Assembly: GCA_008632985.1 (NCBI GenBank)
Contig: QPGO01000284.1
Coordinates: 1-64,000 of the forward strand
DNA length: 64,000 nucleotides
From: Psammoneis japonica
Lineage: Eukaryota
Reading direction: 5' to 3'
Shown here one piece after another: positions 132-54,704 of this stretch (positions within the stretch are counted from its first letter, which is position 1; the number at the start of each line of letters is the position of its first letter). A model generated the notes under the pieces. It was not told where the DNA came from. It was given only the letters and a program-made list of their open reading frames with translations, and ran no database searches. Position numbers and translations under genes: made by a program.

Positions 132-134
132 CTA

Positions 135-6898: not shown

Positions 6899-6901
6899 CA
6901 G

Positions 6902-31493: not shown

Positions 31494-32662
31494 CACAATT
31501 GAAACATTTGGTGTGGCTGGCTGGACCAATTGGGTGCCAATGTGTAAGAATGAATTGTGACAGTGGCGAAAATTTAATGCATCACACATTGACAAAGTTC
31601 AACGGAAAACAGGCCTTGCACTCAAAATGGGATGCATGGAGAATTGCTCGCATGCATCACTTGACATCAAAGCAAGTGCGATTTTTGGCGGGAAGATCAA
31701 GTCTTACGAAAGAGGTCCCAGGAAAAATTGCACTCGGGTCCTCACCACGGAGAACCAACACAGAAAACAACAACAACAACAAAGACAGCAGCAACAAAAC
31801 AAACGAACGAAATGAACACCCGGGGGCCACACTCCGAAGTGGCAGGTGCAGTCTTCACCGTGAGCAGCACTTGCCGGCACCTTCCGGAGGATGAGGAGAA
31901 GGTCAGTGACGGAGAGCAGTGGATTTGTGGGAGGTCGGTCCCTGCACTGAGAGATGATCAGAGCATTGTGAGGAGTGTGCTCGGATGCGATTGCAAAGAG
32001 GGCGTTCAGATGCGCTTCAAGAAGGAATGGCTGGAGGCCGTCGCTCACGAATGGCGAGTTTCATTCTGCATTTGTTTAACTCCAGAATCCGCATTCCTGC
32101 TGGGCAAAAGAAATGTTGTGTTTTGGAAAATGACATTTGACAATTCCACATTCCTGATTCCACTCTGAGTTTGAAGTCAAAATGAGTCCAAGGCTGGTCC
32201 CAAAATGACAATTCCACACACCTGTTCCCACCATCAGTTTGAAGTCGAAATGGGTTCAACGTTGGTCCCATGTGGACACATGATTTTCCATTCGTTTGCC
32301 AAATCTGGATTTCAACAGAGAATTTCGGAGCACACGTTGTCAAATGGGACCAATGGCAGCTCCATTTTGGCCTTCTAATTGTGACACAGATCATTTTCAT
32401 TCGGTTGTTTGACTGTTTTGCCTGTCAACATGGGTCCAAGAGTGGACCCATTTGACCATGTCGGGTTGCTGGACTGACGTTTTTGTTTCAACATCTTGTG
32501 TTTCCACTTTAGTCAGTTGGATTTGACTTGCGACAGCAATGCACCGGATCATTGCAAGAATTGCCTCGAAGTCTTCATTGGGAAAAAACCAAAGTACGGC
32601 AATTTGGTTGGAACTGTGATGTTGCGTGAGATGGCCAGTCCAGGCTCCGTTTCTCGCATTTG

Positions 32663-33830
32663 TGAGCAACAGGTGGAAGAGGACAACCAAAACATGGATG
32701 TGGATTGGCAGAGTGGTGCAGATTCGAATGTTGGATCCCTTCCAAGCGGGAGTGACAGCGACAGCAGTTGCTCCCTCCTGAATCGAATCAACCAAATGCC
32801 ACATTCCGCTGCAAGGAAAAGACGGATGAGAAGGGATTTAGTCTCCTCATCCTCTGAATCATCCTCTGAATCGGAGATTGATGCATCAGATGATGACGAC
32901 CCTTCAAGTGCTGTGGCTGCTGCCAAGGTTTCAGCCAAGATGAAAACCCCGTCAAAAGTGTCTGAACAACAAAACAAGAATGTGAGGGAAAGAATTGTTC
33001 GAGCAACTCCGGATCGTGAGACAAAAACGGATGCAAGGAAATGCAGGGCAGTGGCGCAGGCCAAAAAGGAGGAAAGAAAGGAACAGGCAAGGAGGAAGAG
33101 AATTGAGGCAGACAAGAAGGGGGGGGAAGGCGGCGGCGAGAGCAAAGGCAATGGAGGCAAAGAGAAAGGAAAAGGAAAAAATGAAGAACGCCAGCAAGCC
33201 AAAGAAAGACATGCCGCCGACAGGAAGAGTGACGGTGCAACAACCCCCACCCATCCCAACGAATTCGGCAAAGAAAAAAAGACGTGCAACTGCCCGCGGA
33301 ACAAAAAACAACAAAAATGAAGTTTGGGCAGTTGGGCACATGCATCGACCACAAAAATGTGTGCGGGGAGCATCGCAGTCTCAAAATGGCTGCATTGCTT
33401 TGAATCCCGCAACATTCATTGTCCACTTTTTGTTTTTGGGTTTGTGGCGATTTTAGCATTCAGTCACTTTTTTTGGGTGTTGCTTTTAGTCACGCTGTCA
33501 GTCACAACATGTGAAAACGATGCTTGACTGATTCGATGTGTGCGACGACATGTCCTGAGTTCGACTGTGGATGAGAAATGGATGCGGGTGCGCACCCATT
33601 TGGCATGGTCTGTCCATTGACAGGAGCAAAATTGCATCGATCGCTTTGGCAAATGCATGTCCTGAGGTCGGCTGTTGGTGAAAAATAGATGCGGGTGCAC
33701 ATCCATTTGGCATGGTCTGTCCTTCAACTGTGGCCACTTGGCATCGATCAGGTGGGGTCTGTCATTCAACCGGAAGCGTTTCATGCCACCTCATGACCCA
33801 AACCCAAACCCTCCCATCCCAAATGCACCA
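32663..33830 (+). repeat. Dispersed repeat R1 copy 3 (3' part only)
   Basis: Colinear with 23896-25045, from tgagcaacaggtggaagaggac to cccaaatgcacca. Confidence 0.88.
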
Positions 33831-35014
33831 TGTGCAATGCCATCAACGGACCTTGGGAAAGAGGAGGGGCTGCGAAAATGCCAAGGGGCTGCGGTCACGC
33901 CGTCGGGCCGTGGTGTCACCCTCGGGATGCCGGTCAAAAGTTGAAATGGCAGTGAGAGATGGAAATGGGTGCGCCTGCCATGAGGGCACATTTGCTTTTT
34001 GTGTCAACAGAAGGCAAGTTTGGGGATGCTCTTGCTGGTGATTGCTGGTCTGGCTGAATGGCACGACAGAAGCGCAGCGTTGATTTCCCAACTGTGGATG
34101 CATCTGGTGCTCACACAAATGTCTGCCTCCACATCCTTTGCAGTCTTGATGTTGGCAGGCACGGCGAGTCCTTCCACCCCTTTTCTCTTTGTCAGGGCCA
34201 TGCAAGACTGCAGCGGAGCCAATGAAAAGCACTGTCAAAGTTGACATTTCCATGAATGTGTGACAAATTCATCAAAACAAAACTTGTTTTTCAACAATGA
34301 AACACATGTCGAAAGTCTTTGGCAAATTTAAATCAAAACAAAAAGATGACAATTGTGCACATGAAAAGGAAACAACAAATTCAACTTGACGGCTCTGCGG
34401 GAAATCGACGATTTTGCCAACCTGCCTCGCGCGCCAAGCGCGAGCTTGTCTGCTGCTGCAGCCAGAAACCTGGTCATCCAACCAAGGTTTCTGGAGGTCG
34501 GCTCTGAGTGTGTTTCCTGACATGGCTTAAGATTGAGAGTCACTGCTCCCACTGCAGTCACATCCAATGCCACACCACCATGGACTTCCACAGCATGTCC
34601 GCCACACGTCTGTCGGCCATCAGTGCTCTGGAATCCTTCCTTCACCCCCTCGCAGTGCGCTGCGCACGCGAGACAGAAAAATGGAAAGACACTGCAATGA
34701 GGAAAAAATGTGTGACAAACTTTACTTGTCATTTAATGAAACACATGCAATGTCATCTTCATGGAATCATGTGTCATTTCAGTTGCACCTGCACACGAAA
34801 TAAAAAGATGTTTCGCGCCTTGTCGAGAACCGCAACTGCAATGCTGCCACGATGTGACCCCTTCTCTTCTACAGCATGGCAGGACCCCGGGCTTGACGCC
34901 TTCAATTGTTGGTGCAGCACACTTTGGATGGCACTCTACCAGCAGTTTTGGCACAGTCTAGAGCAGTGTGCATAAAACCAGTTTTGAGAAAATGATGCCA
35001 CTGGAGAATGATGG

Positions 35015-36010
35015 TCACAAATCATCATAATCTACATCAAAAAGTGGCTCACCATTTTGAATGGAAAGCTGTGTTGCCACTGCAACTGCCCTAAAAACAT
35101 CAGCATGCTTGGAGAGGGGACGGTGTCTGAACTTCGTGCTCAGCACCCCCCAACTCTTGAACCGTTCATTGCAGGTCTCCTGTCTGGCACGAGCACGCCT
35201 CTGCATTTCTTCATTTTCTTTTCGGTTGACAAAGAACTGGGGCACTTTACATGCATGGGTGCCTCACCCAAGTGCCCATCATCAGCTTCCACGCGTTCAC
35301 CCTCATCAAGTTCCGTCTTCAATGCCGATCGAAAAATTTGTAAGTCGTTGTACACACCGGGCTCAAAGGGCCCATTAATCCACACAATTTCACCAGTTTT
35401 AATGCATGTTGCAACTTCGTAGCGAAGTCCACACTCGTTGAACTTCTGCGAGCAGAACTTCCTGCCGTGATTCGGAGTGCAAAAGTCTGTCCCGTCAACT
35501 GTTGCCAAACAATCGTTCCCGGTGTCGCCAATGCGGCGATTCTCCCAAACAATCTGGACAGAGCAAACAGCAAAAAAATCAATGCAGGTGAGAATCGATT
35601 TTAATTGCATGGAAACATTGCTTCACTCGGGTGCTCACCACATGCGGCTCGAGTGACGATGTCGCCTCCACAATCGCCCACTTCCACTCTCGAAAAGTTT
35701 TTTCGTCCACCCCCCCAGCCAAGGAGGCAAGTTCAGTTTCCTTGCCATCAGTTTTCACAAAAAGAAGTGCCCACATCATGTGGACAACATTGCCGCCTTG
35801 CGGCAGGACGTCGTGCAGGACGAGTGGGTTCCACAGCGTGAGAGCCACGATTGGGCTGCAACCAAAAAATTCACGAAAACGCCTGTCCTCGGTCATTGTG
35901 GCGCCGAACTTCTTCTCGCGTCTATTCATCATTGAGCGTCCCAAATTGATGATGTCCTCAACTCCGACGGCAAGCCAGCGCATCCTCTTTCTTGGCGGCA
36001 GAGAAGCCAT
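35015..36010 (-). pseudogene. Harbinger/PIF DDE transposase with one intron (35638-35554) and a frameshift near 35240
   Basis: Exon 1: RRFREFFGCSP...HMMWALLF...VDEKTFREWKW...LEPHV. Intron gtgagcac...tgtccag. Exon 2: IVWENR...ATVDGTDF...QKFNECGLRYEVATCIKTGEIVWINGPF...VEADDGH...RARARQETCNERFKSWGVL. Confidence 0.9.
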
Positions 36011-36716
36011 GGTGGAAAGTGGCGAGCCGGAACAAAATGAAACCAGCGTTGAGTGATGGAAACAAGGTTGGGCCGTGGATTGTCTGCTGCTGTTGAAGTG
36101 CACGCATCGGCACAGTGCACGACGTAATCTGACGGTCACGATTTGTTCGTGTTTCAACCGTTGTTCTCTGTTCTTGCATAGAAAGCACACATTTTTATGT
36201 GAGGAGAGCTCGCACGTTTTTCAACCAAAGATTTCAGAAGGTGTGACACAGCTTTTGTCAACAAAAAGTCTTTGTCACAGTCATTTTTCTGCACATCCGG
36301 GTTTTTCTTTCTATCCTGCAGGATTCTCAATGCAGTTTCTACACAAATTTTTGCAACCCGGATGTGCAGAAAAAAACTGTGGCCAAAGCTGCACATCCGG
36401 GTGCTTGTGTGTTGTAGCTGCTGGCAGTGCTCCTGTGCAGTTTCCGGGTTTCACCCAAATCCAAAGCTGCACATCCGGGTGTTTTGTCAAAAATCTGTGA
36501 TGCAATCACAATGCCCCTGTCATCATGTGACCGAAAACGTGTGAAAAAAATGTCGTTTTCACGAGCTCTTCGTAGAGACACACTGGGAAAACCTGGGTCG
36601 CGCCATTTTTCCGTTGGGTTTCGTGTCTCGCCCGTTTGGCGACCGTCTTGCAGAAAAACCAGTGCTGCGCTCCAAACCATCATAATCACAACAGCAACCA
36701 GTCCACGACGAACGCC

Positions 36717-38029
36717 ATGAGCAATGAAGGGACGAAGGCCCGTTGGACGAAAGATCACGACATGAAGCTTGCAAAACTTTTCAAAGAACGCAAGCTTGAT
36801 CCGAATCTTCTTGACTTGCAAAGCGTCAAGAAAGCATGCGAGAAGTGCTTCAGCGACATTCCGAAGTGTCAGACTTTCGCGCAACAATACCGCAAGAAGT
36901 GTCGGCAGTGGGAAACCGACGAACTCATTCGAGCCAGGCGGAAAGGCAAGAAGCACATTTGTTTCCACTGTTCCATTGTTTTGTTCGTCTTACACTCACA
37001 CCATCGTCTTTCTGCTTTGACTTGCACTTGCACGACTCAGGTGCCAAGCGAAGCGCCGAGAACGTCGTGGAAGACACACAAGACGAGGAGTCGAGCAAGG
37101 ACGAGGAGCACGAAACCTCAGAAGACGAAGAGGAATGCTCTGGCGACGAGGAGGTAGCCACCAGCATGCCGGGCAAGACCAAGAGGACCCCCAAGACGAC
37201 GCGAGACGTGAACCGCGACCTTGCGTCAAAGTTCAAGTCGTCTGCTGCCATTTCATCATCTGGCAAGACCAAGTCGAGGAACAAGAAGAAGGCGGACTCG
37301 CTTGTGAAGAAGGGCAAGATCACCCATGAGTGTGGATGCTTTTTCTTAGCGTCTCCGTGGGCAGCATCCGACAAGCGCATGCACACTGCCGTGGATGTCC
37401 TTGTGCCGCCCTTCGCCACGTCACACTGGAACCCAAAGGTTTCTGATTGTGGCACGAGGGTCATGCTCAACGAGCGCATCCCTCCTTGGATTTTTAAGTG
37501 GGATCGCGTGCGTGCTTCTATTCTCACTTCTAGGCTGTCTTCGCAAGACCAAGTTCTGAAGGAAAGCGGAGTCGAGCAAGCCGGGCAAGAGCTGCTCAAG
37601 AGCTGCGGCGTTGAAGAGACCTTGGGTGACGGCAAACGCCGCATGGTTCACTGCCGCCCCCATGTCATTCACCTCCCATTCCCCTGCGAGACCGATTTTT
37701 ATTCCACAAGCAGCAAGGCCGGTTGGAAGCTTGAAGCATTCGCACATGACAACGAAGAGCTCATGGAGCAAGCACAAGGGTGCATGCTCCTTTCGATGGA
37801 GCTCGTGGCGGTGGAGAAGCCTTTAGACGAGGGCAAGGCAGTTGAGAAAATCAAATTTCTTGGTCAGTCTCCTCTAGATGCCGCAATTGCCAAGCAGGAA
37901 GCGAGGAAGTGTCGCCAAACTAGATTCGAACACTCGGCGGTGGCGGCGGAGGGAGTCAACTCGCATGACGACATGGTTTCGGATTCTGAGGAATGCGGCA
38001 ATCTCAAAGATGACAATGAGCATTTGTGA
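36717..38029 (+). pseudogene. Probable second (DNA-binding) gene of the Harbinger element, divergent from the transposase; intron 36946-37040
   Basis: MSNEGTKARWTKDHDMKLAKLF...QQYRKKCRQW (SANT/Myb-like start). Removing gcaaga...cacgactcag joins the 36636 and 36836 frames exactly (K-G|AKRS). Harbingers normally carry two genes. Confidence 0.65.
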
Positions 38030-39179
38030 AGTCGCAGCAGTTGTTCTGTTTTGGCAAAACAGCACATTTTGTACTCTCTGGTCTTGCTCTAGTCTCATGT
38101 TGGCATTTGCAAATCGGCTGGATGCGTGTGCCACTAGCATGTCATAGAAAAAAGATGACATTTCCCAATTGTCAATCAATTAAAGCAATGTGTTCGGTGC
38201 TGAACGTTTTAAAATGCATGACTGAATGTGCAAATAAATGATGCTTTCGAAACCGACCTCGTTCGTCCAATCAGGCTGTGCATGCCAGTGCAGTGCGATT
38301 TCAGACCAAACACGTTCATTCTGGCACATTTCTGCATGAATTCTGTCCGTTTTTCGACACAATCTGCGATTTCCCGCAGAGCCGACTCTTAAAATTGAAA
38401 TTGACGCCAAACCACAACAACACACTTTTGTGCAACTCAATGTTCCGAAATTTACAAAGGAAAGTGAACAACACTGCATTGCCGCCTCTGATGAAATGCA
38501 GAGGGTGAAAGGTGGGACAAATGGATCATTGTGTCAAGTCTCAAAAGTGGCTCAAGAGTTTCAGCCAACAAGAATTGATGGCTTTGTAATTCACCAAGTG
38601 AGTGAACGGCAAATGGCGTTGATTTGGCTGACAGCACAGCCAACATGCGGGCGCGCCTTGACAATCTGTTGCGCTGCACTCTGATGTTGTGGAATGAAAA
38701 GAACAACTTTGGTTTGCATTGATCCATCATGACAGAAGTGTGTGAGCTTTCCCTGGCCCTTTTGGAGCAATCGGGCAAGTGAAAGAGGAGCTGCAGAAAG
38801 ATGCGGATGATGCCATTTTGATGCATGGTCGTCACGTGGTGTTGTCGTGAGTCGCTGATGGGCGTGCCGTGCTTTCTGTTTTTGTGCTGCGTCTGTGTGG
38901 GAATGCACGTGCTTGGCTCTCATGCAGTTTCTGCGTAAAAAGTGCACCAGGCTGTCTCCAGACAGCCCTCTCAAATGGAACATCATGATGGAGTCAACTT
39001 TTTACATTGCAGTCAACTTGCTGGTTTTGCACGTCCTCAATCGGCATCACCCTGATGTGGTGTTGTGCCAAAAAAACTTGCAATGGTGCCAGTGCCCCTT
39101 GCTGCCAGATGCCAGGCTTCGCAGATGCTTGACTTGAACATTGGTTGAGCCATGGCCAACCAGCTGCACAACCTGTGGG

Positions 39180-39720
39180 TCAAACAAGTGAGGTGCTCCT
39201 CCACTGAACTGAGCAACTCGGATTGATTGCAAGCTGAACAGCTGCCTGCCTTGGAGTGGATGGCTCATGCTTCTGCCTTGGCGTCGCGGTGCTGTGAGGA
39301 CTTTCTTGTGCCAAAATTGCACCCATGTGCAGCACCATCATTGAGAGTTCCCGCCATTGGGGCCACACAAAACTGCCAGTCGCAGCGGCCCAATCTGAGT
39401 GCTTTTCCATGTTCGACAAGGAGCGGCACAATCCAGTTGACAGCAAGCATGATGGCTGAGCTTTGTTCCACAAAGATGAGAAGTGCCCATTGAAAATCTG
39501 TCTCCAACCAATTTTGTCTTGAGCTTGAAACACCGCCACAGCACTTTGATGGACATTTGCTGAGTGCAACACCTTGTCGTGAAACCAACACACAAAAAAC
39601 CAGCGTTGTAAAATTGCCAACTCAACTGCAATCCTGTTTGCAGTTCGATTGCGGATTGCAATGGAAATGACTGCAATCTGCTGATTGTTTGTCTGGCGCT
39701 GGTCACAAAGATCGCAGTTG
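39180..39720 (-). pseudogene. C-terminal fragment of another Ambal-like LINE ORF
   Basis: QAQDKIGWRQIFNGHFSSLW...W....W..WREL motif, typical of the C-terminus of these RT-RNase H ORFs. Confidence 0.5.
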
Positions 39721-40135
39721 CATTTGCGATCGATCGCGATCGATTCGTGTCTAAAATCCAGTCGTGAATCGGGATTTTCAGCTCACACGGGGCCAAAAAT
39801 TGACCGAAACGTGGTGTTCATTCACGAAAAATTCGCAGGGCACCCCTGCGTGGGGCGCGCGAATTCCGCACGGGGGCCAATCGCGATCGGGATTGCAGTC
39901 GATTGTTGCACATGGCAAGCGCACACGTGCATCAGAGTGCACGACATCGCAGCATCTGCGCGCATGACAAAATCACATTGCTGTGTTACAAAATTTGCTC
40001 ATCTGCACATGACGGTTTTTGTCATTCAGCCAATCATCAATCTCCTGCCATTCTTCATGTTTCAACACAGATGCTTCTTAATTTTTGTGCTCTGTCTTTT
40101 TCTCAACAACTGACGATCTTTGACGACAAGCCAAA

Positions 40136-40231
40136 CATTGCAGTTGCATGCAATGAAATTTTCATCATGTAAAGTGTGCACTGCATTGCAGCTGCATGCA
40201 ATGAAATTTTCATCATGTGAAGTGTGCGCTG
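40136..40231. repeat. 48-bp tandem duplication
   Basis: cattgcag.tgcatgcaatgaaattttcatcatgt(a/g)aagtgtgc occurs twice; one copy has TA where the other has TG. Confidence 0.85.
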
Positions 40232-41018
40232 ATTGTTCAATCAACAACTGTGCTCCAACTGGCCTGTTTGTCCGCATCATCCTCTTCATTCCACATGTCT
40301 TGTCCGCTCTCTTGCAAGAATTTCAAATGTGCCGCTGCCGCGTTGGATGTTTCCTCATTGCCGTTCCAAAAAAGCCACACTGCATTTCTTGCATTTGGGC
40401 AAACATCATCAAGAGGAAGAATTCCCTCGAAACGCAGAATCGTGTCGCTGCTCCCCTCTTGATGTCGTGTTGTCTGCTTCTTTTTCTCTTTCTTCATTTT
40501 GCCCATCCCATTTTTCTCTTCCTTCTTCATCTTGGCGCCGCCTGTTTTCACCGTCTCTGGCGTCTTTCCATCTGAATCCTTCTTTTTCATCGATCCCGCA
40601 GCCGTTGCCTTCATTGTGTGTCACTTTGTTTTGGATCCATGTTTCTGACTTCTCTCTGCGCCACATCCATTTCCGAGTGTTTCTTTGTGATTGTTCGCGT
40701 GCGTCACTTGAAGGCACCCACGTGTTCTTCATGCACCTTAACGCGTGTGTAGAAATCCATGTTGTTTTCCAGCACATTCACCCTTTCTCCTGATGCATGT
40801 TCGCACAACATTTTCTTCCATCAACTCTACACTCCGCATTGCCCTTTCCCGGCACAATCTCACGCAGGATTTCCCTGGGAGAAGTTGCGTGCGCGTCTGG
40901 CAGGTTTTTGTGTTTAAAACTCCAAATCCTGCCAGGCGTGCATGTGACTTCTCCCACACACCACTCTGGCACATTTCCACAGAAACCAGAATTTTGTGAC
41001 TGATGCACGACCAATCTG

Positions 41019-42274
41019 GTGAATGCAATGGCGGACCCACGACCACAACAATCAGAGCATTGGAAGAAAACCATGTCAGATGAACTCCGTCTGTCCGCTG
41101 ATGAGGATTTCCGTTGCCGGATGATGGAGACAGTTGGTGGTTTTGTTCACGCTGACACTGCTTGTTGTTTGGAGGAACAGAGAGCAAAGGATGCAAAGGC
41201 TGCTGTGTCAAGATCGGTGGAAGCAATGGCAGAAGCCTGTTGTGCCGTTGTGGCTGCAACGACTGCACTTGAGAGTGCTTTGTTAAATCAAGCAACAACC
41301 ACTCACGAATTTAAAAGCACATCTGTGCGCAGTGCATCAAGTCATCAATCGAGACACACCATTCAGACAACGACCACATTGTTGCAGTGGAAAATTGCAG
41401 TGTGAAGCGGAAATGAGTTTCCAGCGCTTTCTTCACGGCAATGCATTTGACGCAAAAGAGCTGGGGCTCCCAATCTCTGTTGTGGGACATCAAAAATCAG
41501 AATGCAGGCTGCACATGCTGCACAGCTGTGACTCGACATTGCTTCTGAGAAGCCTCAGGGAAAATTCTGACACAGATGCCACAAGAGTGGAGAGGGAGCA
41601 ATCTGCGATTAACAGCATTGACAAATCCATCCGCCGCCGTGCCGTGCCACTCCTTTGAAGGCGACATCTAACACAGCCGCAGCGCATCCTGAAAGATGCA
41701 ATCACGTTGCTCCACGAGGCCCTCGACGATTTGACAAGGAAAGACGTTGCCTTGCAGCGACAGTGGCAAGCTTTGTGTGATCTGAGGCCAGGCACAGATC
41801 AAATGCGGGGAGGGACATGGACCGCGATCCGGGCTGTGGACGAAGAAGCTGTGGCAAGAGAAAGGGTCCTGCAGCTGGCATTGCAAATTGAGGCACAATT
41901 GGTGGCTGTCAACCAGCCTGAACACAGCGCCGACTTTCAACAGGCGATTGTGGCTGCCAGGGAACATTTCATGGCGCAGGATGACCAAATGGACCGTGTG
42001 AGTGGACACTGCATAGAATCTGTGAGGAAGTGATTGCTCTAAAACTGCACACATCTGATGCATCAAGAGTTTCCTGTCATGTCGGTGGTTGGGAAAGCCT
42101 TCCGATCAGGAAGAAGCTCATCTTGGAGTTTCAGAAGAAGACATCAGAATGAAAGCAACGGAAGGTGCTCGCACCACACTGCTTCAAGTGTGCCAAAATG
42201 ACTTTGCTGATTCTGAAAGGATCAAACTCATCATGTTTGCAAGAAAGAGTTGGGAAATCACTGTGAGTGAATGA
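41019..42274 (+). pseudogene. Degenerate unknown ORF convergent with a Plavaka-like transposase end
   Basis: Protein-like pieces; WLGKPSDQEEAHLGVSEEDI resembles WLGKPSDQEAMHSGVTEQEI at ~50840. Confidence 0.45.
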
Positions 42275-42289
42275 TGGGCTGATGCGCGC

Positions 42290-42760
42290 ATCCTGTTTTA
42301 GAAACAAATCTGACCAACACTTCCTTCTGTCCTGTGCAGCCCAAACAAATGGGGCCTTTTCTTGCGCTTCTGCCACTCCTGGACATTCTTCATAAACCAA
42401 AACATTGTCCCCAATTGCTTTGACAGGGACAACATGTAACTCAGTTGAGCACTGAGTCTTCTCAGGCATTGAAAGCCAGTTGCTTTGTTTGTGATCAAGC
42501 TGCCAGCAACCAACCAAGTCTGTGTGCTGATGCCGTTGCCTCACAGTTCTCTGGTCAGCTTGACAAGCAGTTGGATGGACCACTGCAAAAATCAATCCTG
42601 TGTCTTTCTGTTCAAAGAAACACAGCAAACGGGAGGGAAACTGTTGATTGCCCTTTCATGTGCCAAAGGTCAATGTTCATTTTTTGTGCAAAAAGGAGGG
42701 GCATCTGTGTTTAGCTGTTGCTCAAGCAACTTTGCATTTTCTTGCTGCTCTTTCCACATT
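42290..42760 (-). pseudogene. Plavaka-like transposase, C-terminal fragment
   Basis: IFAVVHPTACQAD...TDLVGCWQLD...LHVVPVKAIG...QDRRKCW aligns with LFAIVHPCTCQAD...TDLVSRWQLD...LHLVPIEAVG...QDRRKTW at 51250-51560. Confidence 0.65.
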
Positions 42761-42834
42761 GCTGCTGCCTGCACTGCTGTTGCTGATGCACCTCTGCTTG
42801 TTGTTTTTTTTAACATGCAAAGTGCCTGATCCAC

Positions 42835-43620
42835 GACGTGTTCCAGCTCCAGGTGGGACCTCGTGCAGCTGCGCTGTGACATCAACAGTTTTTTGGATCA
42901 CGTCGCATGCACGCACATTTCTGCGTGTTGTGTTCTGTGAAATTGTTTCATGCTCCCTGTTTTGCAAAGCCAAAGGCTTTCTGTTTTCAACAGTTGTGAG
43001 AGTCGAAAGTGTGCTGGGTGTGTTCTTCAATGTCTGTGGAGCACACCTGGGACGCGTTCCAGGTCTAGGTGGGACCTCGCACTGCTGAACTGTGACATCG
43101 ACAGTTTTTTGAATCGCGTCGTATGTCGCGCACGTACATTTCTACGTGATTTTGGCGAAATTTTGTGTGATTTTGTGGTGCAATTGTCAGGCTGTCCATT
43201 GTGCAACTTTTAACATTTTTTTCTTCTACGCCATTCTCGAGTGTCTTAAGAATGGCGCAGGGCGGGCGCATTGTCCAATGCTTTGAGTGCGGACAGGGAT
43301 AGATGCACTGCAAACTTGGCCATTTTTTTCATGTCGAAGATGAATGTGTGCGTCAACCAGAGTACAAACCACAGAGCTCGCACGCAGAATTCTGCGGGGC
43401 AAATGTCACAAAAAGTCCCACCTGGGGCTGGAGCCCGTCCTGGACAAACCATTGTTGATGCACTTCAAGTGTGAAGGAGGAGATGTGTTCGCAAAATTGC
43501 CTCTTTTTCTGTTGGCGATCATTCACATTTTCGTTGCAGGTCAAATTTGCTGCGCAGCTTGCGCACAGAATTCCATGGGCCCAATGTCACACAGAGTCCC
43601 GCCAAGGACTGGAACCCGTC
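42835..43620 (-). mobile_element. MITE family copy (old, no TA left), TSD CCAC/CCGC, split by a nested MITE
   Basis: ccac|gacgtgttccagctccaggtggga...(insertion)...gtcccgccaaggactggaacccgtc|ccgc. Confidence 0.9.
43051..43439 (-). mobile_element. MITE family copy nested in the previous copy, TSD CTGG
   Basis: ctgg|gacgcgttccaggtctaggtggga...tcccacctggggctggagcccgtc|ctgg. Confidence 0.94.
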
Positions 43621-44992
43621 CCGCCGACAACGAGCACAAACCAAGACCAGCACAATTTGCAGAGTGCACAGCCGTGCGGCAAAGTGCTGCTCATCAGCAT
43701 TGGCTCCAACATGCCATGCATTTGTGTCTTTTCCATGATGGAGTTTGGGTTTGTTTCTTTTGTCCATCTGGTGTCATTTAAAAAGGAGTGCCTTGCCAAG
43801 GTTTTTTGCCAGCGATGTGTTTTCAACCCAGGTGGGTCACTTGGGGACAATGCACGAGGTTTTCTGCACATTTCTGCGCGACACGCACTTTTTGCACCAC
43901 AATCGTGTGCAATTTTTGAGCTCCCACATGATGCCATCTTTTTTTCATGCCTCATCCACAAATTGCACGCACACCAAAAATGGCACCATGCCGCTGCCAT
44001 GAACTCAACCATCCTTGCACCATCGTCCGCAATGACAAAGAAGGCAAGAATGCCAAAAAAGGTCAATGAAACTAAGGTCAATGCGACGATGTGGTTGAAG
44101 TTTTGATTTTTGCTGTTTGTTGTGTCTTGTGGATGGCCTTTTTCCTCATGATGTTTTTTGTGCCAATTTTTCCCATCCTCAGATTGTGATGTGGCATTCT
44201 TTGACATGCAAGGCTCTGTTGACTTGACACTTCATGCACGCAACAACGTGTGTCTTTGTGATGCGTCAGTGTGATTTTTGTGATGCATTGAATGCACTTC
44301 AAGTCAGTGTGGATGATGCTTTTGGGTCACACGCAAACATCAAACATTGGTGCCAACAAAAGAGTGACTCTTCATTCAGTTTTGAGGGTGCACGGCAATG
44401 AAGAAGCCACTGGATGAGTCCAATGGGTGCAATGTTGTAAAGCAGAACAAACAAAAGTGACGTCTGTGTGTTGCATCCATTTTGCTTTGTTCCAAGGCAG
44501 AACCAGTCAATTGCACATGGAAATGCTGTCTACATTGTTTCGTTGTTGCCGCTGCTTCTGCTCATCAAATGACCCAATTGCTCCACATTCATCAATCTTT
44601 GTTGCTGCTGACATTTCAGTGCTGGCATGCAACTGACTCAAGACTCCCACACAGGTCAACAAATCAGCCGATCTTTGAAACAGCAGATTGTGCAAAAATG
44701 CACACACGAAGTCACCAAAAAGTTGATTTCGAAAGAGCTTTCTCTTTTTGTCCACACCCTCCAACAAACAAAGAAGGCGGCCGGTCATTGAAAATGAGCA
44801 CATCTGATGAAAGAACAAGCAAAAAATCAGGGGAAAGTGTGAGCTCGGATGAGAATTTTTTCTCGCACAAAAAGCACGGTGACGGAAAACAGACAGACAC
44901 AATGTCACACCCTCGTGCGCACGCAACCCACCTGGGATGATGAAAACACATCCAGTGCAGCAGCGCTTTCAAATGATTGGAGAGAGGAGAAC

Positions 44993-45349
44993 GACGGGTT
45001 CCAGTCCCAGGTGGGACTTTTTGTGACATTTGCCCCGCAGAATTCTGCGTGTGAGCTCTGCAGCTCATGCTCTGGTCAATGAACACATTTGTCTTCGACA
45101 CAAAACAAACGGCCAAGTTTGCAGCACATGTGTCTCTGTTCGCACTCAAAGTTTTGGACAGCGTGCCTGCCCTGCGCCATTCTTGGGACACTCAAGAATG
45201 GCGCAGAAGAAAAAATGTTAAAAGTTGTTGAATGGATCGCCTGACAATGTGCTGTAAAATGACACAAAATTTTGTCAAAATCACGTAGAAATGTGCGTGC
45301 GCGACATGCGACGCGATTCAAAAAACTGTGACAAGACCTGGAGTGCGTC
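44993..45349 (+). mobile_element. MITE family copy with a deletion near the right end, TSD GAAC/GAAT
   Basis: gaac|gacgggttccagtcccaggtggga...gacctggagtgcgtc|gaat. Confidence 0.88.
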
Positions 45350-46099
45350 GAATGCTGCTGCTGCAAGAACACACACACTTTAGAGGCAAGTGGTGCTGGC
45401 AGCAGCATGTTGGAAATGAGACCTGAGTCAAGTGCACTTGGAGTGCCAGCTTTCTTCTTGGCTTTCTTCTTGATTGTTCTCAGCCCAGCTGATGGGAGAC
45501 CCTGCCACGTGTTGTTTTTTTTTCTGTGCCACACAGCACTTTTCTTTTTTGCTTCTCTTTCATCAGAGGCGGCAACACAGTGGTTTTCAATTTTCTGCAC
45601 AAATGTTGCCAATCACAGTTAATTTTGTTGCACCTTCAATTGTCATTTTTGCATTCAAATTGAAGCAACACACTGAACTCATTAAATCCGTTTTATGCCG
45701 ACATTTGTCATCCATTTGTGTTTGATCATTCTTGACAATTTAATTCGATTTTCGCTTTTGTTGGATTTTGTAAATTTCCATTTGATCTTAATGTCACATT
45801 TGCATTGAATCGACATCTTTGATTTTGGTTTTTAATGTCTCCACATCATGCACACCCCACCGTGTTGACTGGCATGTCCTCTGCTGTTCGGCATGCTCCA
45901 GTCTCCCCCGCGCACATTTCCAGCATCATTTTTCCAGCACCTCCTGGAATTTCTGTGCTGCCCTGCTTCGGGTGCTCATTCTACATGCGCAATTGTCTGC
46001 ACAATTTACAACAGTGCATCCTCTCCCCAAACTGCTTTCCACCTGAGCATGCGCTGTTGTCATCCACGCACTTTCTACGCGAATCACAACTGACCTCTT

Positions 46100-49000
46100 G
46101 CCATGGCGGTCAATGACTTCACCCCGTCTCACGACGATGTTGACCCCGATCCTTCCTTCCAATTTCCTGATGAATGTGATTTTGATGATGTGGAATGTTT
46201 TGCCAATGGTTTTGGAATGGAGTTGTTTGGTCCCAAGCTCAAAAGCATGGTTTCAATGCGTGCATCCAAAAAGCAGTTTTTGGAATCGACGAAATGGACT
46301 CCCTCTCCACAATTTCTTGCTCTTCCCTTCCTTTGCCACAAGCCGAAGTTGCGTCGAATTCCGTGTGTCACGGAAGTCATCCGCGCCAACAATGTCATCA
46401 GGAAAACTCTTGGATGCCCTGACGTTTGGTCTTGCATCAAGACTCGTGGTGGTCCCTGAAGAAATCCTGCTTGGTGAAAGGTCAATGCTGCCTTCGTCAT
46501 CGAAATTTGGACAAAGCTCTCCATTTCTCCAAAATGCCCGGAGAGACAGTTCAACAAGAAGAGCACCACATGAATCTTCACCGCAACATCTTGTCTGTGC
46601 GATTGTTGCCGGTGACGACCCAAATGATCCCGTTTCCGGCAAGCCTTGTTTCCGGTTTCTAAAGGAAGACAATCTCAAAAAACTGATCGACGACCGTGCA
46701 AAAGACCTCCACGGTGCATTTTTTGTCACCGAAATCGCAACGCGTCACATTCAGCACAAACAAAATGACTTTGACTGCTGGTTCATGCAGATTTTTCATC
46801 ATGTCCAATCGCAAAAGGAGTGGCGCCTGTTTGCCAACAGCTTTCTTGTGCCATGCAACTCTAACGACCCGGGCTCTCAGGCAGATGATGTCAAGGAACA
46901 CCTCGCTCCGGACCAAATCGGCAACATGAAGAACAAAGTGACAATGGCTGGTGATTCCCTTGCAAAGAAAAAATGAATTCCATGTTGAACCACGAATTTG
47001 GGAAGCGCTGTCCTGAGGAACAACCTGGCACACAACCCAAGTGCAGCAAGTTGCTCACAATCCTTTGATGCAGAATGCGTGATCAGAGGGCGGACTGCAT
47101 GGATGATGACAACAAACGAGAGCATCAATCCAAAACCAAACACAAAATTGGGAGGACCCGCAAAGACGGCACCTGTTTGTACGATGGTGCGTGCCCCCCC
47201 CTCCTTGTTGCCGCATGTTTCTTGTGCATCCGTCTTCTCATGCACCCATGTTTTACCCTGTTGTTCACATTCGCTGCATGAGAGCCTTCCTTGACAGTCC
47301 CCAACAAGAAGCCAAAGACTGCATCACGCTCCACCAAGGCACGTCCTCCTTCGTCTGCCAACCTGCCGTCGTCACGGGAGGCAAACCGCATTCTCACGGC
47401 CGACCTTCCCACTTTGTTGGAAACCATGGATTCCCACAAACCTTCCTCTTCACTGGAAGGTCCTCCTGCCCAGCTGCCAGCCTCTCTGCTGGTTCGCACC
47501 ACGAAAGGCCCGGTTGCGTCGTCTCCCCCACTGGACCCCAACGACATGTCGTGGTTGGACAAGTCCACACTCCGACAGAGCTTTGACCCGTCCAAGTGTC
47601 GATCTGTCACCTCAGACGAAGTTGCTGCTCATGTGTCACGCCTTCACATCATTGACAAGGCAACTGACACGGAGCGTGTGCTTCACCATTCCGCGGCCGA
47701 CTTTTACCTTGCCGACAACCTCAGGGAAAACTGGCACATCTTTTCAAACAAAACCCCCATCAGCGACCCAACTGCCGCATCTCGTGTGAGAGCTGAGTGT
47801 CCTCCTGACCTCAATCACTGCTCAGACGAACTCTCTGTTGCCCGTCATGCAAACTCTCTTTACAAAGGGCACTTTGGTTGCCTTCGTGTGTGCATTCCTG
47901 CCCTTTTGCTTTTCATTTTGTTGAAGGGAGAGTCTGATTTTCAAATGTGACGGATCACTGGCAGTTGACAAGGAAGACAGACAAAGGATCAAGATTGGCT
48001 GTGCTGGTCGGTCATGTCATCCAAAGGAGCCTGGCTCTACAAAATCAGCCAAACCCAAGGCCACACACGGTCTTCATGTTTTTGATCCTGACAAAAACTT
48101 CGACGTGAAAGAGTCTTCCAAAATCAAGGCCATGGTTGCTGACATTCTTGACTCGACTCAGCTTTGCGAAAACAACGTCGAGCTTTGGAAGCTTCGCAAC
48201 CCCCCACCGTTCAACTGGTCACTTCAGTGTGAAGAGCATTCGAAAATGTTTTGTGATGAAATGGGTTGTCCACATTTCCGTCGTGAGGACGTCACCCTGC
48301 AGGGATCATGCACATCCCGTGGTCAATGTTGTGAAGGACACCGCGACGTAAAAAACTGCACCTGGCTTCAATGTCGGAAGACAGCCGCTGGTCATTTCTT
48401 TGTCATGGGTGCATTTGGCGATGTGTGGTCCTTCAAGGTAGTCGCCAACAGCAGAAGCCCCATCGGTCAATGCTGCGATGATGAGTGCGACATGAACCCG
48501 ATGTTGACTCGGATGCACCACAACCGAGCTCAGCTTGACTTTGTGCTTAAAGACATGGATCTCCAACACGATGGTCCCACCCATCCTGACTCTGTCCTGA
48601 CCACACGCACATTCAAAAAACTCTCGCTGGATGACAGCCGGCCATGGAACAATGTTGTCATTGGCGGAGGCGGTGTCACGGGAATCCCCCATGTGCACAT
48701 GGATCGGCTCAAGTTCCCAACATTCCCTGTGAGGGACTTTCACCTGTCCGCCCCAAGCACAGTTCTGTTCCGTTTCAAGAACATCTGTGCACAGATCGGG
48801 GCCAGATCCGAAGCAAGTGATGCGGTTGGCCATTCATGCTGGTCATCCGACAGGGCATCACCGATTCTACTGTGTCGGTGACAAGCACCTGCCTGAGCTG
48901 TGTTGCCAAGGCGTCGACCCATTTCTACAATTCGCTGATTGCTTGATGAATGAGTTTGGCGTTTTGTTTGGTGATCCACAGGTGGGCAGGATTGGCCCAA

Positions 49001-51070
49001 CCAATTTGACCTACGATGAGCTCGCCAAGGTTTTCATTGACGACAGGTGCATTGGCACCGCTGATGACCCAGTCAAATGTGATGGTCGACGAAATCTGTG
49101 CAGTGCTGCTTTGGCTCAATGATGGCGTCACCACCGATGAGTTCTGTCCCAATTTAATGGAACAACGCTGCAAGGCTGCCTGCGATGTTTGGGCACACAG
49201 GGGAGCAGATTTTAGCGAGATTCATCTCATGTCAGTGCTGCATTGTCTCGCTCTATCCAGTGTTGTGGTGAAGGACCACCTGCGTCTGAACAACATGATG
49301 TGTCCTGCATTCAATTCTGGCACGGCCGCTCAACTGGCCCACATCAACCCAGACAAACCAACTGGCCCACATCAACCCAGACAAACGACCGCTCATGCAC
49401 CAACGCATGTGATTGGAGACCGGGGCCGAGGAGCACGGTTGGAACGGTGCAGAGCACAAACTCTGTGAGAACTCGGACAATCGCTGCACGTGCATGTTCG
49501 ATTGCATGTTCCGCGGTCCATGTTCCGGACAAGATCTCTTCTTCATTTTCTCCATCAGGCAAGCGATTGCGCAAACCCTGTGGATCAGTGGATTGTCAAA
49601 TTGTGGAGTGCGTTGACTCAGACCCTCGCCTTTACGACCAAAAAGATGCGACGGTTCAAGGTGGAATTGCGGCTGACCTTGGTGATGAGTCCTTGTTGCG
49701 TGATGGAGTGGCTGCTGACAATGAATTAAACTCATTGTCTGGATCATCCAACCAGGACAAATCCTTGCCGGAAGAATCCTCCGACGATGAAGACAGTGCG
49801 GGATTAATTTCTTGCGCATCGGACAACAACGAATCATTGGCACTTGACGGAGTTGTGGCAGACAATGAACTTGGCTCCTTGCATGATGAGTCCTCCAACG
49901 ACGAAGAATGTGCGGGATCATTTTCTGGTGCATCAGACAAGAACGAATCATTGACTCTGCATGGAGTTGTGGCAGACAACGAACTTGGTGACAGTGTTTC
50001 AGAATGCGGCGCCCCTGTCATTGCTCTCAAGGATGAGGAGAGTTCTGTTGATGCCACCAATGACTGTGCGAATCCACCCGACCTTTCACAAAATCCCACT
50101 GCAAATGTGGACGAACACGTGGCGGCAACTTTGGCGCAAGTCTCGCACCTTCTCCTTTGAGACTTGAGTGTGAATTGCTGTTGTGGCTGATGTGTGACTC
50201 TTTCTGCCCTGCTTTTTAACAATGCACAGTCGCGACAGCAGCGCCAAAATCCTGTGGCTGTGCATGTCCAGGCCTGCAAATGCCGGACAGCTGTCCTTCA
50301 ACGAGCTTTGTTCCGACCGTGGGGTGCAGGCCGTGGCCAACACTCAGCATCAAAGAGACGAGGCTGGGTGTCAAGTTGCGGAAAACCTGTGCACGAATGC
50401 CAGCGTTGAGGCATGCACCATCTCTCTGCAGGACGGAAGTGCCATGCACCACCTCAATTGCAACATTTCTGCAAAGGATTTTGTGTCTCGAGTGAAGTCA
50501 CAATTCGGCGGTGAAATTGATTTTAAGAACAGTGGATTCATCCAGATTTGCATGGACTGTTGCTGGATGCAATGCGGCGAGTGGAACATGACGTCTTTTG
50601 GCAATCGCTTCTTCCGCGAAAACCCAAAAGAGATGATGCCATCCTTGTTGCATCCCAAGTTTGAAAGGTGTCGCATCACAGTCCCACACAACCTGTGGTC
50701 TCTCTCCCAAGTCGTGCGCAACTTGGAGCATGTAGAAGAATGCGCGCTGATTCAATTGATGACTCACGAAACGGCATTGGACGAAATTACGATGTGCCAA
50801 ACGTCGCTCGAAATCGCAGAACAAGACAGGGGGATTGGCTGGGAAAACCATCCGACCAGGAAGCCATGCATTCAGGAGTCACGGAACAGGAAATTTGGGA
50901 AACACTTCCGGAAACAGAAAGGGACAAGGTCTTAGACTTCACAAGAGAAGTTAAGAGTTATGATCCGAATGATCCATGGAAGTTTTTTTCTTTCGAAAGA
51001 AGCGTGCCAAATTGGCAGACCTGCCTCGACCCGTGGCCCCGGTGGTTTCTGGACCCGCACATCGACGAAT
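46100..51070 (+). pseudogene. Long degenerate ORF series of unknown function, convergent with the Plavaka-like transposase
   Basis: Consecutive protein-like + ORFs (46103, 46098, 47291, 48105, 48787, 49016, 49243, 50222, 50668). Includes a GHRDVKN motif and three ~120-140-bp ESL..DGV.ADNEL repeats (49685-49990). Confidence 0.45.
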
Positions 51071-51239
51071 GAAGCTGACTCCTTCAATTCTTGTGGCCTT
51101 GTCAACTGCACAAATTAGGTGAGTGCTGATGGTTGTGTCGTCTGTTTCCGAAATTGCGCATGTTCCAACAATGGCATGCTCTGACACTGTTTCGAAATGC
51201 AAAGCACTGTTTGCAGTTGCCAATTGTCGATTGTGCCCA

Positions 51240-54200
51240 TCAACCGCATTGTGAAACTTGGCCGCCCATGTTTTTCTCCTGTCTTGAACTGCCCAAACGT
51301 GCTTTGTCTTCTCGTGTGACTCTGTGATTCCCGGTTGTTCCTCGCACACCTGCAATTTTTCACCGACCGCCTCAATTGGAACCAAGTGCAGTTTTGGAGC
51401 ATGCACGGCTTTTTGCGTGTGGACAACTCTTGGTTTTTTACTTGATCCAATTGCCATCGACTGACAAGGTCGGTGTGTTGCATGCGTTCCACCATGGTGC
51501 GCTTGTCCGCCTGGCAAGTGCAAGGATGCACAATTGCAAACAACTCACCATCGCTCATTCTTTGAAAGAAAGAATGAAGTCGTGAAGGGAAGAACAAATC
51601 ACCGCGCCAAGTTCCAAAGTTTGCATTTGCCCAGTCATGAATGGCGCCTTTGCTGTTGCAGTCCGGGTGCGCGCGGTGAGTGTCGATGCCGTTTTTGTCA
51701 CAAATTTGAGGAGAACAGGGTGCACCTGACAATGCTTTTGTTTTCCCTTCCACAGGAACAAAACAGCCTTGTTCGAAGCATTGCACTTCAACACGCATGA
51801 GGAACCACCAAGACGGTGATTGGCCGCATCACCCGCCGCACGCATTTTGCGATCCGACTTCTTTGTTGTCCATGGATTGGCGGAGATGGCTCGGCGAACC
51901 ATCATTTGGTCTTCCATGCGAGACGCAACCTGACCCAGAAGGACATCAAAGCTCCGCTGTTGAGCCATGGCGGCTGGCAATTTGAAAAAATCCTTCAACA
52001 GTGATTTGCCAAGACCAGCATCGAAATTCATGGCATGACGGTAGAAGAACAGGAAAGTGGGCAAATGGATCAATTCATGGAGTTTTTGCAGCTTCCAACC
52101 AGCACCCTTTGAAGGTTGTTTCTGTCTGAAGGAGGGTCACCCAGCTTGTGCCATGCATGGAATGCAAGCATGTCTTTGAGCAGCTTTGCATGCTGGTGAA
52201 CGCTGCATCTAATTGGGATTCTCTTTTTGTTGGCTCTCTTGCGCTTGCCCTCTCCTTTGTTGTCTGATTCGTTGTTGTTGTTTTCAACAGAACGGTCAGT
52301 GTCGCATTTGTTGGATGCTGCATCTTCTCTGTCATCTAGATCAACTGCTGCCTGGCAATCATCCTCCGGATCGCATTCTTGTGGCATGTGGATTCTGTCC
52401 ATTCTGAATTTTGGGATGCGGCGACCCAAGGGAAGTGATGGTTCTTCCGCGTCTTCTTCGCTGAAGCAGGATGCGCAGACCTCGCGACCCTCCTTTGCAA
52501 GCAACAGAAGGTAAAAGACAAAGGCCATCCCCGCCCAGTGATGAGAATTTAAGAAGGTGAGTGAAGTGGCCCCACCTTTGAAATTGGTGCCCAGAAAGGA
52601 GGAACTGCACGTGGATTGGTGATTCCCGAACATCTTTTCTGCCAGCCCGTCTACCTCCTTTCTCACGTTTGCAGTCATGCTGTCCACAAACACATGGATC
52701 TCCCTTTTCAGAGTGCCATTTTCATGCAGGTGCATCATGTCGCTGGCCATGGAAAGAGTTGCTCCGAATGGTTGCTCGCCAAAGTCTGCACACAGCAAAC
52801 TGTTGGTTGGAACATTGTGTTGCTTCATGTGGTGCAGTTCTTCCCTCCAGTGACTCCGCTCCTTGTCTTCAAGACTTTCATCATTGGCCATGCACTGAAC
52901 TCGCAGCAAGTTGCCAGCACGCACCAGCTTGCATTCCTTCCAAGGGTCGTCAAGGTTGTTGCATCCCGTCATGCAAAAACGGGAGCAGCGTTGGCGACAA
53001 TTCTTTGCCGTGCCTGCCCACAAGGCAGTCTCCGCTCTTTGCATCTCCATTGATTAGGATTGTGATTGGAATTACATGAAGGTGACGGATCTCGTCGCCT
53101 CGTCGCACATGACATTTGAAGCCACCCAGCTCCATTGCGTCAAGCAAAGGCTGAAGTGTGGTTTTCAAAACCTTGTGGTGCTCACGAAGACTTTGCCCCT
53201 TTTCCGACTTGCGTGCATTGGACTGCTGTTTTGCTGCGGAAGAAGACATTTTTTCAAGGTCGGGAATGCATCCAAGAACTCTCCACTTAGCTTTGTTGTG
53301 CCACTGTGTGAAGGCAACATGCGCGGAGGTCACTGTCACGGGTTCTCTGCAAGAAGATCCCATCGAAGCTGTCTGTCCCGTCTTGTCTACATGAACTGTC
53401 AAACATTCCAAGAACTGTTTTAGTGGATCCTTGACTCTGGCGAATCGTGCTCCTGTGCCACTCTCCGGCCAAGACGCATTTGTCATCCAAGCCCTTGGCA
53501 ACGTGCATGCCAAAAGGATTGTGTGTGTCCGCAAGATTGCTTTTGTCAGCCCACATGCAAGTGTCAAGCATGTGTGATTCCCACACCTCTTGGAAGTTCC
53601 ATCTTGGAACCATTGCAGTTTTCTCTCCCCGTTCGCCGCTTGGAGTTTCCAGGTTGACCGGTGTCATCTCTCGTTTGGTCCGGGGAACGATTTGGAAAGA
53701 GTTTCCATCAGTGCATTGCGATGAGGCATTTTGGTCCCAAGCTTGAATGTGGTGCTGCAATGTCTTTCGACAAATCCCACAATGTCGTCGCACAGGTGGA
53801 GCGGCGCTCTGCAGTCATCTGTCAGCTTGCTCAACTCCACACAGGCCCCGTTTGGGTTGCTCAATGACGACAAGCCGGCAAAGGCTGCCTCGGCGGGGTG
53901 TTGGCAGATGTTGCCCAATCGGCTGTCATCCAACAGAGAGGAAATGTTCCCTTGGGACGCTTGCGTGTCATCTGTCACATTGCTGTCTGGAACATCCATG
54001 GTGACGTCCGGCAGCGCGGCGAAAGAGTTTGCTTCTGTGTCGCTGCTTTCGTCTGAAAGCATCTCCAGTGACATGAAGCAACTGTCGTCTGGGCCACAAA
54101 TGGAGGAGAGAGGGGACATGTTGTCTTCGAATGCTGGCGACCATGGAGCGTCAGAAGGTGGTTCGGACGAACGGGCAGAACCAGCCATGCGGGCATTGGA

Positions 54201-54517: not shown

Positions 54518-54704
54518 TTTGGTGTTTTGGTGGAAAGAAACAGCAAAGGATTGGCGAGAGTGATTGTGCAAATGGTTGCGGCTGAGGTTTGGTCGTGTGG
54601 ACGGTGTGTGTGTGTTGTGAGGGTTGGCGGGAAACAAGACATGAAATTGGCGCGAAAATGGTGATCATTGATTTTTTTGCATTGATGAATGCTTTTGTGG
54701 TTGC

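Follow-up and report, generated by a model that had tools for sequence, protein, structure and literature searches.

The closest precedent for the process considered here comes from the chlorarachniophyte B. natans (Rhizaria), in which integrated NCLDV and virophage DNA undergoes TpA-specific hypermutation (Mettrop et al.; 10.64898/2026.01.13.699255). The changes arose de novo over 378 days in two single-copy viral inserts, at approximately 1000-fold the background rate, and the figures given in the preprint (231 changes, 187,656 nt, 3132 generations, 3.3% TpA) would correspond, by our calculation, to a rate of ∼1e-5 per TpA. Deamination of adenine by an ADAT2-like enzyme is put forward there as a proposal, RIP is named as a comparison, and the TpA-depleted genes are enriched for transposase and reverse-transcriptase domains, with an extension to transposons being suggested (10.64898/2026.01.13.699255). 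The main text of the preprint, as far as it was available, makes no mention of “diatom,” “MITE,” or “trinucleotide.” In the literature covered, with subscription journals lying outside that coverage, the process has not been reported in diatoms or in MITEs and B. natans is the only close precedent. So far the only measurement of TpA hypermutation covers roughly one year and a pair of viral inserts in a single alga; we describe here the same signature in ordinary DNA transposons of a different eukaryotic supergroup, on which it has acted over a long period.

In the RIP of ascomycetes, C is changed to T, often as CA to TA so that TA is made, and the hits tend to be strand-coordinated and premeiotic. 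What we observe resembles RIP in that transitions in a particular sequence context degrade repeats over generations while genes are spared, but it runs in the reverse direction, raises GC, and proceeds without strand coordination. Editing of retroelements by ADAR and APOBEC enzymes is a single event that takes place prior to integration and affects one strand of the intermediate, be it RNA or cDNA. The likeness to such editing lies in the deaminase-type hypermutation of mobile DNA, whereas here both strands change after insertion in elements with the anatomy of DNA transposons, and the loss grows with age. In CpG decay of methylated transposons (PMC9998398), too, a dinucleotide is gradually converted to TG and CA, cumulatively and in repeats only, yet this decay has another substrate and is 7-9 times slower, and the TA and CG columns are separate in our alignments. 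With B. natans the diatom MITEs share the change of TpA to TpG or CpA on both strands, the confinement to foreign or silent regions, and a rate far above background, the long-term ratio of the TA rate to the neutral rate being 200-300 in the diatom. In B. natans, however, the target is integrated viral DNA in which TpA is partly depleted (rho 0.45; 10.64898/2026.01.13.699255), whereas here it is MITEs, which are DNA transposons, together with the surrounding repeats of a diatom, in which TA o/e comes near 0.05; further differences are that TAY is preferred here, that AY gives a weak secondary signal, and that a time series is available over copies and over two versions of the same locus.

The window is the whole stretch of 64,000 nt from Psammoneis japonica that was analyzed (contig QPGO01000284.1, positions 1 to 64,000, forward strand), and its features are listed in Table 1. 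From base 1 to ∼59,200, TA o/e is 0.13, and near 59,200 the number of TA per 200 nt climbs from 0-4 to 6-10, which shows that the erosion is regionally confined and that genes are spared. The gene beyond the boundary encodes an RGS-domain protein kinase (GRK-like; window 59523-61759), and the atlas cluster closest to it occurs most often in Bacillariophyta. Contigs of run X2 skip three introns, so the gene is transcribed and spliced, and the erosion ends ∼300 nt upstream of it. The eroded domain also includes a satellite of 17-nt units with a higher-order spacing of 54 and 71 nt (12250-17450 and 6900-7440), which holds 3 TA in 5.2 kb, as well as a dispersed repeat of ∼4 kb (34391-38384) with copies of 93-95% on contigs C26 and C27 and another of ∼2.6 kb (39930-42600) with more than 20 copies at 85-90%.

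A second version of part of the window is present on contig C88, which is most likely the other haplotype, a segmental duplicate being the alternative. Positions 51872-72330 of C88 are colinear with window positions 42672-64000, being 93-98% identical in eroded DNA and 99.9% identical in 61671-64000. Between the two versions, eroded DNA diverges by ∼5%, with most of the differences at CpG and neither direction prevailing, and 61671-64000 by 0.13%; colinearity is lost upstream of 42672, and a stretch related to the satellite lies on C88 in reversed orientation. A search for a second version of window 24500-42600 matched only dispersed repeats, and none was found for the left flank of the copy at 31104. 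Public runs cover one sample only, and short-read contigs of run X1 carry the C88 letters at the four unique sites that were checked (42703, 42713, 43674, and 43774); among the 15 of 78 joints listed for run X1 there was no empty-site joint.

Table 1. Features of the window. Losses are expressed relative to the reconstructed ancestor of each subfamily (sf); C88 is the second version of the locus.
Feature	Position	Strand	Observations
TA-eroded repeat-rich domain	1..59200		TA o/e mostly <0.2; CA+TG o/e mostly 1.4-2.0
MITE copy, sf1	2965..3353	-	25/31 TA sites lost
MITE copy, sf3	10185..10580	-	23/31 TA sites lost; same diagnostic sub-lineage as 56690
MITE copy, sf4	10775..11170	+	28/31 TA sites lost
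MITE copy, sf4	20652..21034	-	30/31 TA sites lost
Young MITE copy, sf2	31104..31493	-	5/30 TA sites and 0/30 CpG lost; TSD CACA/CACA
Outer MITE, left TSD	42831..42834		CCAC; CCGC in C88
Outer MITE, left part, sf6	42835..43050	+	0 TA; ends in first CTGG (43047-43050)
Inner MITE, sf1	43051..43439	+	9 TA; 22/31 TA sites and 3/25 CpG lost; empty site in C88
CTGG target site, second copy	43440..43443		
Outer MITE, right part	43444..43620	+	0 TA
Outer MITE, right TSD	43621..43624		CCGC; CTGC in C88
Truncated MITE copy, sf1	44993..45329	-	3 TA; 25/28 TA sites lost, 26/28 in C88, CA/TG pattern otherwise equal
MITE copy, sf4, internal deletion	54705..55053	+	21/25 TA sites lost; copy absent from C88
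Young MITE copy, sf3	56690..57085	-	3/31 TA sites lost; TSD GCAA/GCAA; copy absent from C88
Uneroded genic DNA	59201..64000		TA o/e 0.5-0.7; holds spliced RGS-kinase gene; boundary sharp

The family to which these copies belong is ∼390 bp in length with imperfect TIRs of ∼24-26 bp and a 4-bp TSD, and it is a MITE family by size and terminal repeats. The TSDs are identical in 208 of 240 paired elements, and empty sites hold one copy of the target. High copy number is indicated by the 838 exact matches of a 12-mer from one MITE end, compared to 17 for a control, and more than 1000 candidate places for the family were found in the genome (G000), with five main subfamilies. Loci were gathered by similarity searches with five window copies and with the 12-mer of one end, and 240 unique paired elements were cut, of which the 230 of 340-425 bp were clustered on transversions only. 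This gave five subfamilies (224 copies; six copies in two small clusters were dropped), and after removal of five duplicate-locus copies 219 were analyzed, 159 originating from similarity searches, four from the window, and 56 from loci picked by position. The age mix of the 219 copies is therefore biased, since 159 of them come from similarity searches. The reconstructed subfamily ancestors have 30-35 TA each, and the alignment columns form two clean classes, one with TA, CA, and TG in which CG is almost absent, and one with CG and some CA or TG in which TA is absent. In four subfamilies, the two TA that lie directly inside the terminal repeat (positions 29 and 32 counted from the A end) disappear early and often together, and if these positions matter for transposase binding, their loss would be the fastest way to immobilize a copy. 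No autonomous partner was found in 20 stretches around apparently unpaired ends or in a cluster of MITE ends on contig C1; this cluster is instead a TA-free tandem duplication array (G000:C1:1180001-1210000; L253-L255) with units of ∼6 kb that are 93-98% alike and have MITE pieces in each. There is also a second MITE family of ∼400 bp (L280:3796-4196, L269:679-1073, L262:314-714, and L032:2237-2637), which has a similar spread of TA (26, 8, 3, and 3) and is twice inserted in the ∼390-bp family.

A preliminary description of this DNA had read the nested pair of MITEs as a clock, in which an outer and necessarily older copy with no TA is interrupted by an inner copy that has 9 TA and CTGG on both sides, and a recount gives exactly these numbers. 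The nine paired copies in the window have 7, 8, 3, 2, 25, 9, 4, and 28 TA, with 0 in the outer copy, and the recount also agrees with the 2-8 TA described for other copies, the 25 and 28 TA of those at 31104 and 56690, and the identical CACA and GCAA TSDs of these two. That the nesting is real is borne out by C88, which has the outer copy uninterrupted and with a single CTGG. Raw TA counts span different subfamilies, the outer and inner ancestors being 29% apart, but the difference persists after normalizing to the ancestors (31/31 vs. 22/31 TA sites lost, Fisher p = 0.002), with the whole outer copy having also lost 11/23 CpG. The TSD of the outer copy was probably CCGC, as judged from its four letters in the two versions, with one CpG decay in each. 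The TA-rich copies do form islands, in that 25-28 TA in ∼390 nt compare with 5-7 TA/kb in their 1-kb flanks, although the earlier wording of fully eroded surroundings is slightly too strong, as these flanks retain about one-tenth of the genic TA density.

Nests elsewhere in the genome were compared as well, and among six host-guest comparisons, that in the window included, the guest was clearly more eroded than its host in none, with two ties. In a triple nest the losses are 30/30 over 21/27 over 24/31, and in a further nest (L016) a host with 28/30 lost has a guest with 5/30 lost. Guests of the second family are found in a host with 5/25 lost (L280; 26 TA in the guest) and in one with 26/30 lost (L269; 3 TA in the guest). 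The triple nest (L262; G000:C311:51918-53067) combines three subfamilies of the ∼390-bp MITE and has a duplicate on C597. Three nests with unrelated guests (L226, L193, and L234) were left out of the comparison, as the ancestral TA of these guests is uncalibrated; in raw counts these guests, with 1-3 TA, match or exceed their hosts in TA poverty.

Across the 219 copies, the loss of TA tracks independent measures of age, as the clock reading required. The correlation (rho) is 0.45 (p = 4e-12) with private neutral change, that is, transversions and non-CpG C>T, 0.36 with transversions alone, and 0.83 with CpG loss, and in the 56 position-picked copies it is 0.52 with neutral change and 0.76 with CpG loss. 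In a class of 82 copies a TA loss of 7% is accompanied by 1.7% CpG loss and 0.17% neutral change, in a class of 48 copies the respective values are 70, 13, and 0.38%, and in a class of 75 copies they are 89, 28, and 1.06%. The figures for the two older classes give a TA decay 7-9 times as fast as that of CpG and 200-300 times as fast as change at neutral positions, and the TA clock reaches saturation at about 1% neutral divergence. It is a loose clock that saturates early: within subfamilies the neutral correlation is 0.12-0.38, with p < 0.05 in two of five, and the overall rho of 0.48 compares with 0.67 ± 0.04 expected for a simulated pure Poisson clock. CpG loss would be a non-independent timer if TA loss and CpG loss both need silencing, and what the clock measures is probably how long a copy has resided in silenced DNA rather than the age of its subfamily. 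The young copies have a neutral-change floor of ∼0.15%, which fits the TA and CpG data alike and may represent change gathered in protected masters or assembly error. If the mutation rate is that of Phaeodactylum (4.77e-10; PMC6604790), a 70% loss would take ∼1e7 generations, equivalent to ∼1e-7 per TA per generation; given the ∼1e-5 per TpA calculated for B. natans, an intermittent version of the process would suffice here. Over all copies, loss did not correlate with TA in the flanks (rho 0.07). Eroded flanks surround 182 of the 219 copies, a figure that stands without a genome-wide baseline of eroded DNA, and TA-rich DNA on both sides was seen for two copies only (L042 and L026, with 2/31 and 3/30 lost), which are both young and are candidates for protected master copies.

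That the process is progressive and recurrent, as originally proposed, is supported, while its continuing activity is only a suggestion, the youngest copies having few losses. Whether it is steady is a separate matter, and the strongest competing explanation is that the same process acts in bouts, linked to stress, sex, or transposon activation, so that the loss in a copy reflects the bouts it has lived through. The distribution of losses is two-humped, none of the 56 position-picked copies falling between 27 and 52% (p ∼0.002 vs. uniform ages), and such a gap fits a steady process only if transposition paused. Bouts would also explain why in some copies heavy TA loss is unaccompanied by neutral or CpG change (private neutral change is lacking in 36 of 123 heavily eroded copies, and CpG loss is nil in four copies with at least 60% TA loss), and why host and guest are equally eroded in two nests (21/27 vs. 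24/31, and 26/30 vs. 3 of ∼26 TA left). Losses in young copies are over-dispersed and clustered, 42 of 169 adjacent losses lying ≤12 nt apart compared to 15% when permuted, although shared descent confounds and inflates this measure, and in B. natans hypermutation occurred in only 11 of 15 lines (10.64898/2026.01.13.699255). However, CpG loss climbs in step across the gap, from 2.6 to 9.6%, as a pause in transposition predicts, and the uncoordinated change of both strands means that any bout must span several replications. The rise in CpG loss thus favors a pause in transposition as the reason for the gap, with bouts of activity possible, and we regard bouts as a serious contender that is nonetheless less probable than the accumulation of losses with time in silenced DNA.

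Among the 30 closest relatives of the copy at 31104, 75 of 76 A>G changes follow T and 70 of these 75 are in TAY (TAC or TAT), while there are 11 CpG losses; when each site is counted once, 84 of 250 TA positions are changed compared to 24 of 660 others. Over all 219 copies the ancestral TA sites are now 3282 TA, 1793 TG, 1661 CA, and 23 CG. The outcome depends on context, with YTAY giving TG and RTAR giving CA, RTAY being the fastest and YTAR the slowest (1.72 vs. 0.61). Both strands are changed in every eroded copy, strand coordination is absent (mean z2 of 0.8-1.0 in 90 copies with 2-21 losses), with slight strand over-dispersion in heavily hit copies (mean z2 of 1.33, n = 105), and the direction is from TA to TG or CA, with CA>TA not raised. 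Old copies have in addition a weaker excess of A>G at non-TA AY (AAC 6.8%, CAC 7.7%, and GAC 4.1%, compared to ∼1% at AR).

Sequence does not by itself distinguish attack on the A from attack on the paired T, and the chemistry is accordingly less settled than the pattern. In the reading that we prefer, adenine at TpA in DNA would be deaminated to inosine by a TadA/ADAT-type enzyme and then copied as G, and to this we give an even chance. TAY preference resembles the context preference of TadA; no published TadA context preference for comparison was found in the literature searched by term. The genome has a TadA-like gene, an ADAT2-like gene, and two A_deamin genes, and with no deaminase expansion found in it, this appears to be an ordinary tRNA-editing set. 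The ADAT2-like gene (G000:C26 near 119851; two exons read separately) has HAE (HxE), PCxxC, and an Asn at the TadA-108 position, features that the B. natans preprint singles out; this Asn is usual in ADAT2, and as judged from its motifs it is a candidate only, its presence being no evidence of activity on DNA. The alternative is that T is attacked or that the error is replicative, by thymine modification, by a bias in the repair of T:G to C:G, or by an error-prone polymerase in heterochromatin, RTA>RCA being the same as TAY>TGY. The two readings are identical in sequence, the weaker non-TA AY excess in old copies fits a source of broad specificity, and a special deaminase was not found in G000; but a rate hundreds of times the background with nearly pure transitions would be hard to obtain from a passive repair bias, and Tet_JBP has no match in G000, nor in any of the controls, so that this negative carries little weight. 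We consider an origin on the T or in replication to be unlikely, though well within the range of plausible explanations.

A single ancient event, with all TA-rich copies arriving afterwards, would account for the two-humped distribution of losses, but it conflicts with the comparison of the two versions of the locus. The shared outer copy has lost 31/31 and 31/32 sites, respectively, with CA or TG equal at all but two TA sites, and such common states mean that erosion ran before the versions split. The inner copy and those at 54705 and 56690 are missing from C88 at clean sites with one TSD, and one copy is found only in C88 (gap at C88:57361-57752). These version-specific copies have lost 22/31, 21/25, 3/31, and 23/30 sites, respectively, and hence erosion also took place after the split and in both versions, unless old copies were excised precisely each time. 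A single event therefore survives only if the eroded version-specific copies (71-84% eroded) are old and were excised precisely from the other version in three cases of three; the young copies, moreover, have TA-specific losses of their own. We regard this explanation as very improbable. In 14 kb, 84 sites are discordant between the versions for CA and TG, with contexts that resemble those of the CpG differences (p 0.17), and none of 41 single TA differences is in RTAY (p = 2e-6). With so few discordant sites, the host DNA must have been mostly eroded before the split, which supports the original proposal that the copy at 56690 arrived after its host DNA had been eroded. TA is absent from the TSDs of young copies (0/91).

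Founder sequence, with TA-poor copies descending from TA-poor masters, is more improbable still as the main cause and is refuted, as it is as a complete explanation of TA content, since only 1-3 of ∼30 sites are inherited. Such inheritance is real: one TA>CA change is common to about 20 of 30 copies of an sf2 sub-lineage and another to most copies of an sf3 sub-lineage, and no TA-rich copy was found among the 36 of sf6, the subfamily of the outer copy, for which reason the sf6 ancestor is a reconstruction only. Against it, each of six sub-lineages that are uniform in their diagnostic letters ranges from copies with 0-10% loss to copies with 53-87% (the widest ranges being 0-86% and 10-87%), and founder sequence is insufficient when one sub-lineage extends from nearly intact to heavily eroded copies. 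In these six sub-lineages, 64 low-loss copies have 22 neutral changes and 27 of 1808 CpG lost, and 15 high-loss copies have 26 neutral changes and 52 of 424 CpG lost (neutral contrast, p = 6e-8). The eroded relatives of the inner copy differ in CA and TG site by site, and the sf6 columns contain both CA and TG with CG almost absent. Assembly or base-calling error has nothing to recommend it beyond the extreme composition and is of negligible probability, as TA-intact copies and genes adjoin TA-free DNA, two contigs agree in their CA and TG states, and contigs of run X1 show the TA-poor C88 letters.

The few losses inherited from masters indicate that erosion and transposition alternate, and the transposing line itself appears to escape. 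Intact copies of four subfamilies have a TA o/e of 0.91-1.04 although the subfamilies are 15-35% apart, which is more than 10 times the divergence at which resident copies saturate, and the differences between intact subfamilies show no clear excess of TA vs. CA/TG. Intact copies are thus uneroded across such divergence; either the clock begins with silencing, or this lineage acquired the process or the elements only recently.

We are highly confident of the descriptive part of our conclusions, namely that TA is lost after insertion, copy by copy, that the losses accumulate with age, and that some of them predate and others postdate the split between the versions. As the best explanation overall, which we consider reasonably probable, we propose that a MITE of ∼390 bp inserts as a TA-rich sequence in the diatom genome and that, once resident in repeat-rich silent DNA, it would be hit site by site on either strand, TA becoming TG or CA by A>G after T, fastest in TAY. 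The clock would start when the copy lands in silenced and probably CG-methylated chromatin, copies that are still transposing would largely escape, and the process would act like a genome defense that degrades resident mobile DNA, the escape being suggested by the intact subfamilies. CpG decay and genes for C5-methyltransferases are both present in G000, and DNMT5 methylates CG in diatom transposons (PMC9998398). More tentatively, and as a conjecture to which we give a minor share of belief, diatoms may edit adenine in their DNA by a natural system directed at silenced repeats, a standing defense opposite to RIP with a clock that runs from silencing. Transposon families would then persist because fresh copies succeed one another, as in a relay, or because a few masters are protected in genic DNA, and fresh copies would be TA-intact across 15-35% divergence while residents are erased within ∼1%. 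Being shared with a chlorarachniophyte, the system would be an old one across SAR and could supply a natural deaminase for adenine in dsDNA. The adenine editors in current use were engineered from a tRNA enzyme, and a natural adenine deaminase acting on chromosomal DNA would be of wide interest.

Whatever the chemistry, the MITEs place TA loss on a time axis: nests and the two versions order the events, CpG and neutral change serve as yardsticks for the rate, and a preferred target emerges. TA loss may serve as a fast tool for dating very recent insertions, and in such genomes it distorts estimates of repeat age and of haplotype divergence (∼5% in eroded DNA vs. 0.13% in genes) as well as analyses of codons and GC.

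Several observations on the gene content of G000 are added for completeness. DNA_methylase gave 27 matches, of which five extend over nearly the full length and several are broken, so C5-methyltransferase loci are more numerous than expected for a diatom. A 491-aa frame (L248; G000:C79 near 88506, minus strand) has a cytidine/deoxycytidylate-type deaminase domain and, by eye, an apparent 2-oxoglutarate-Fe(II) oxygenase domain. Silicon transporters have 24 matches, in keeping with a diatom genome, and a single open frame of 1511 aa (G000:C38:226311-230342) contains three silicon-transporter domains in tandem.
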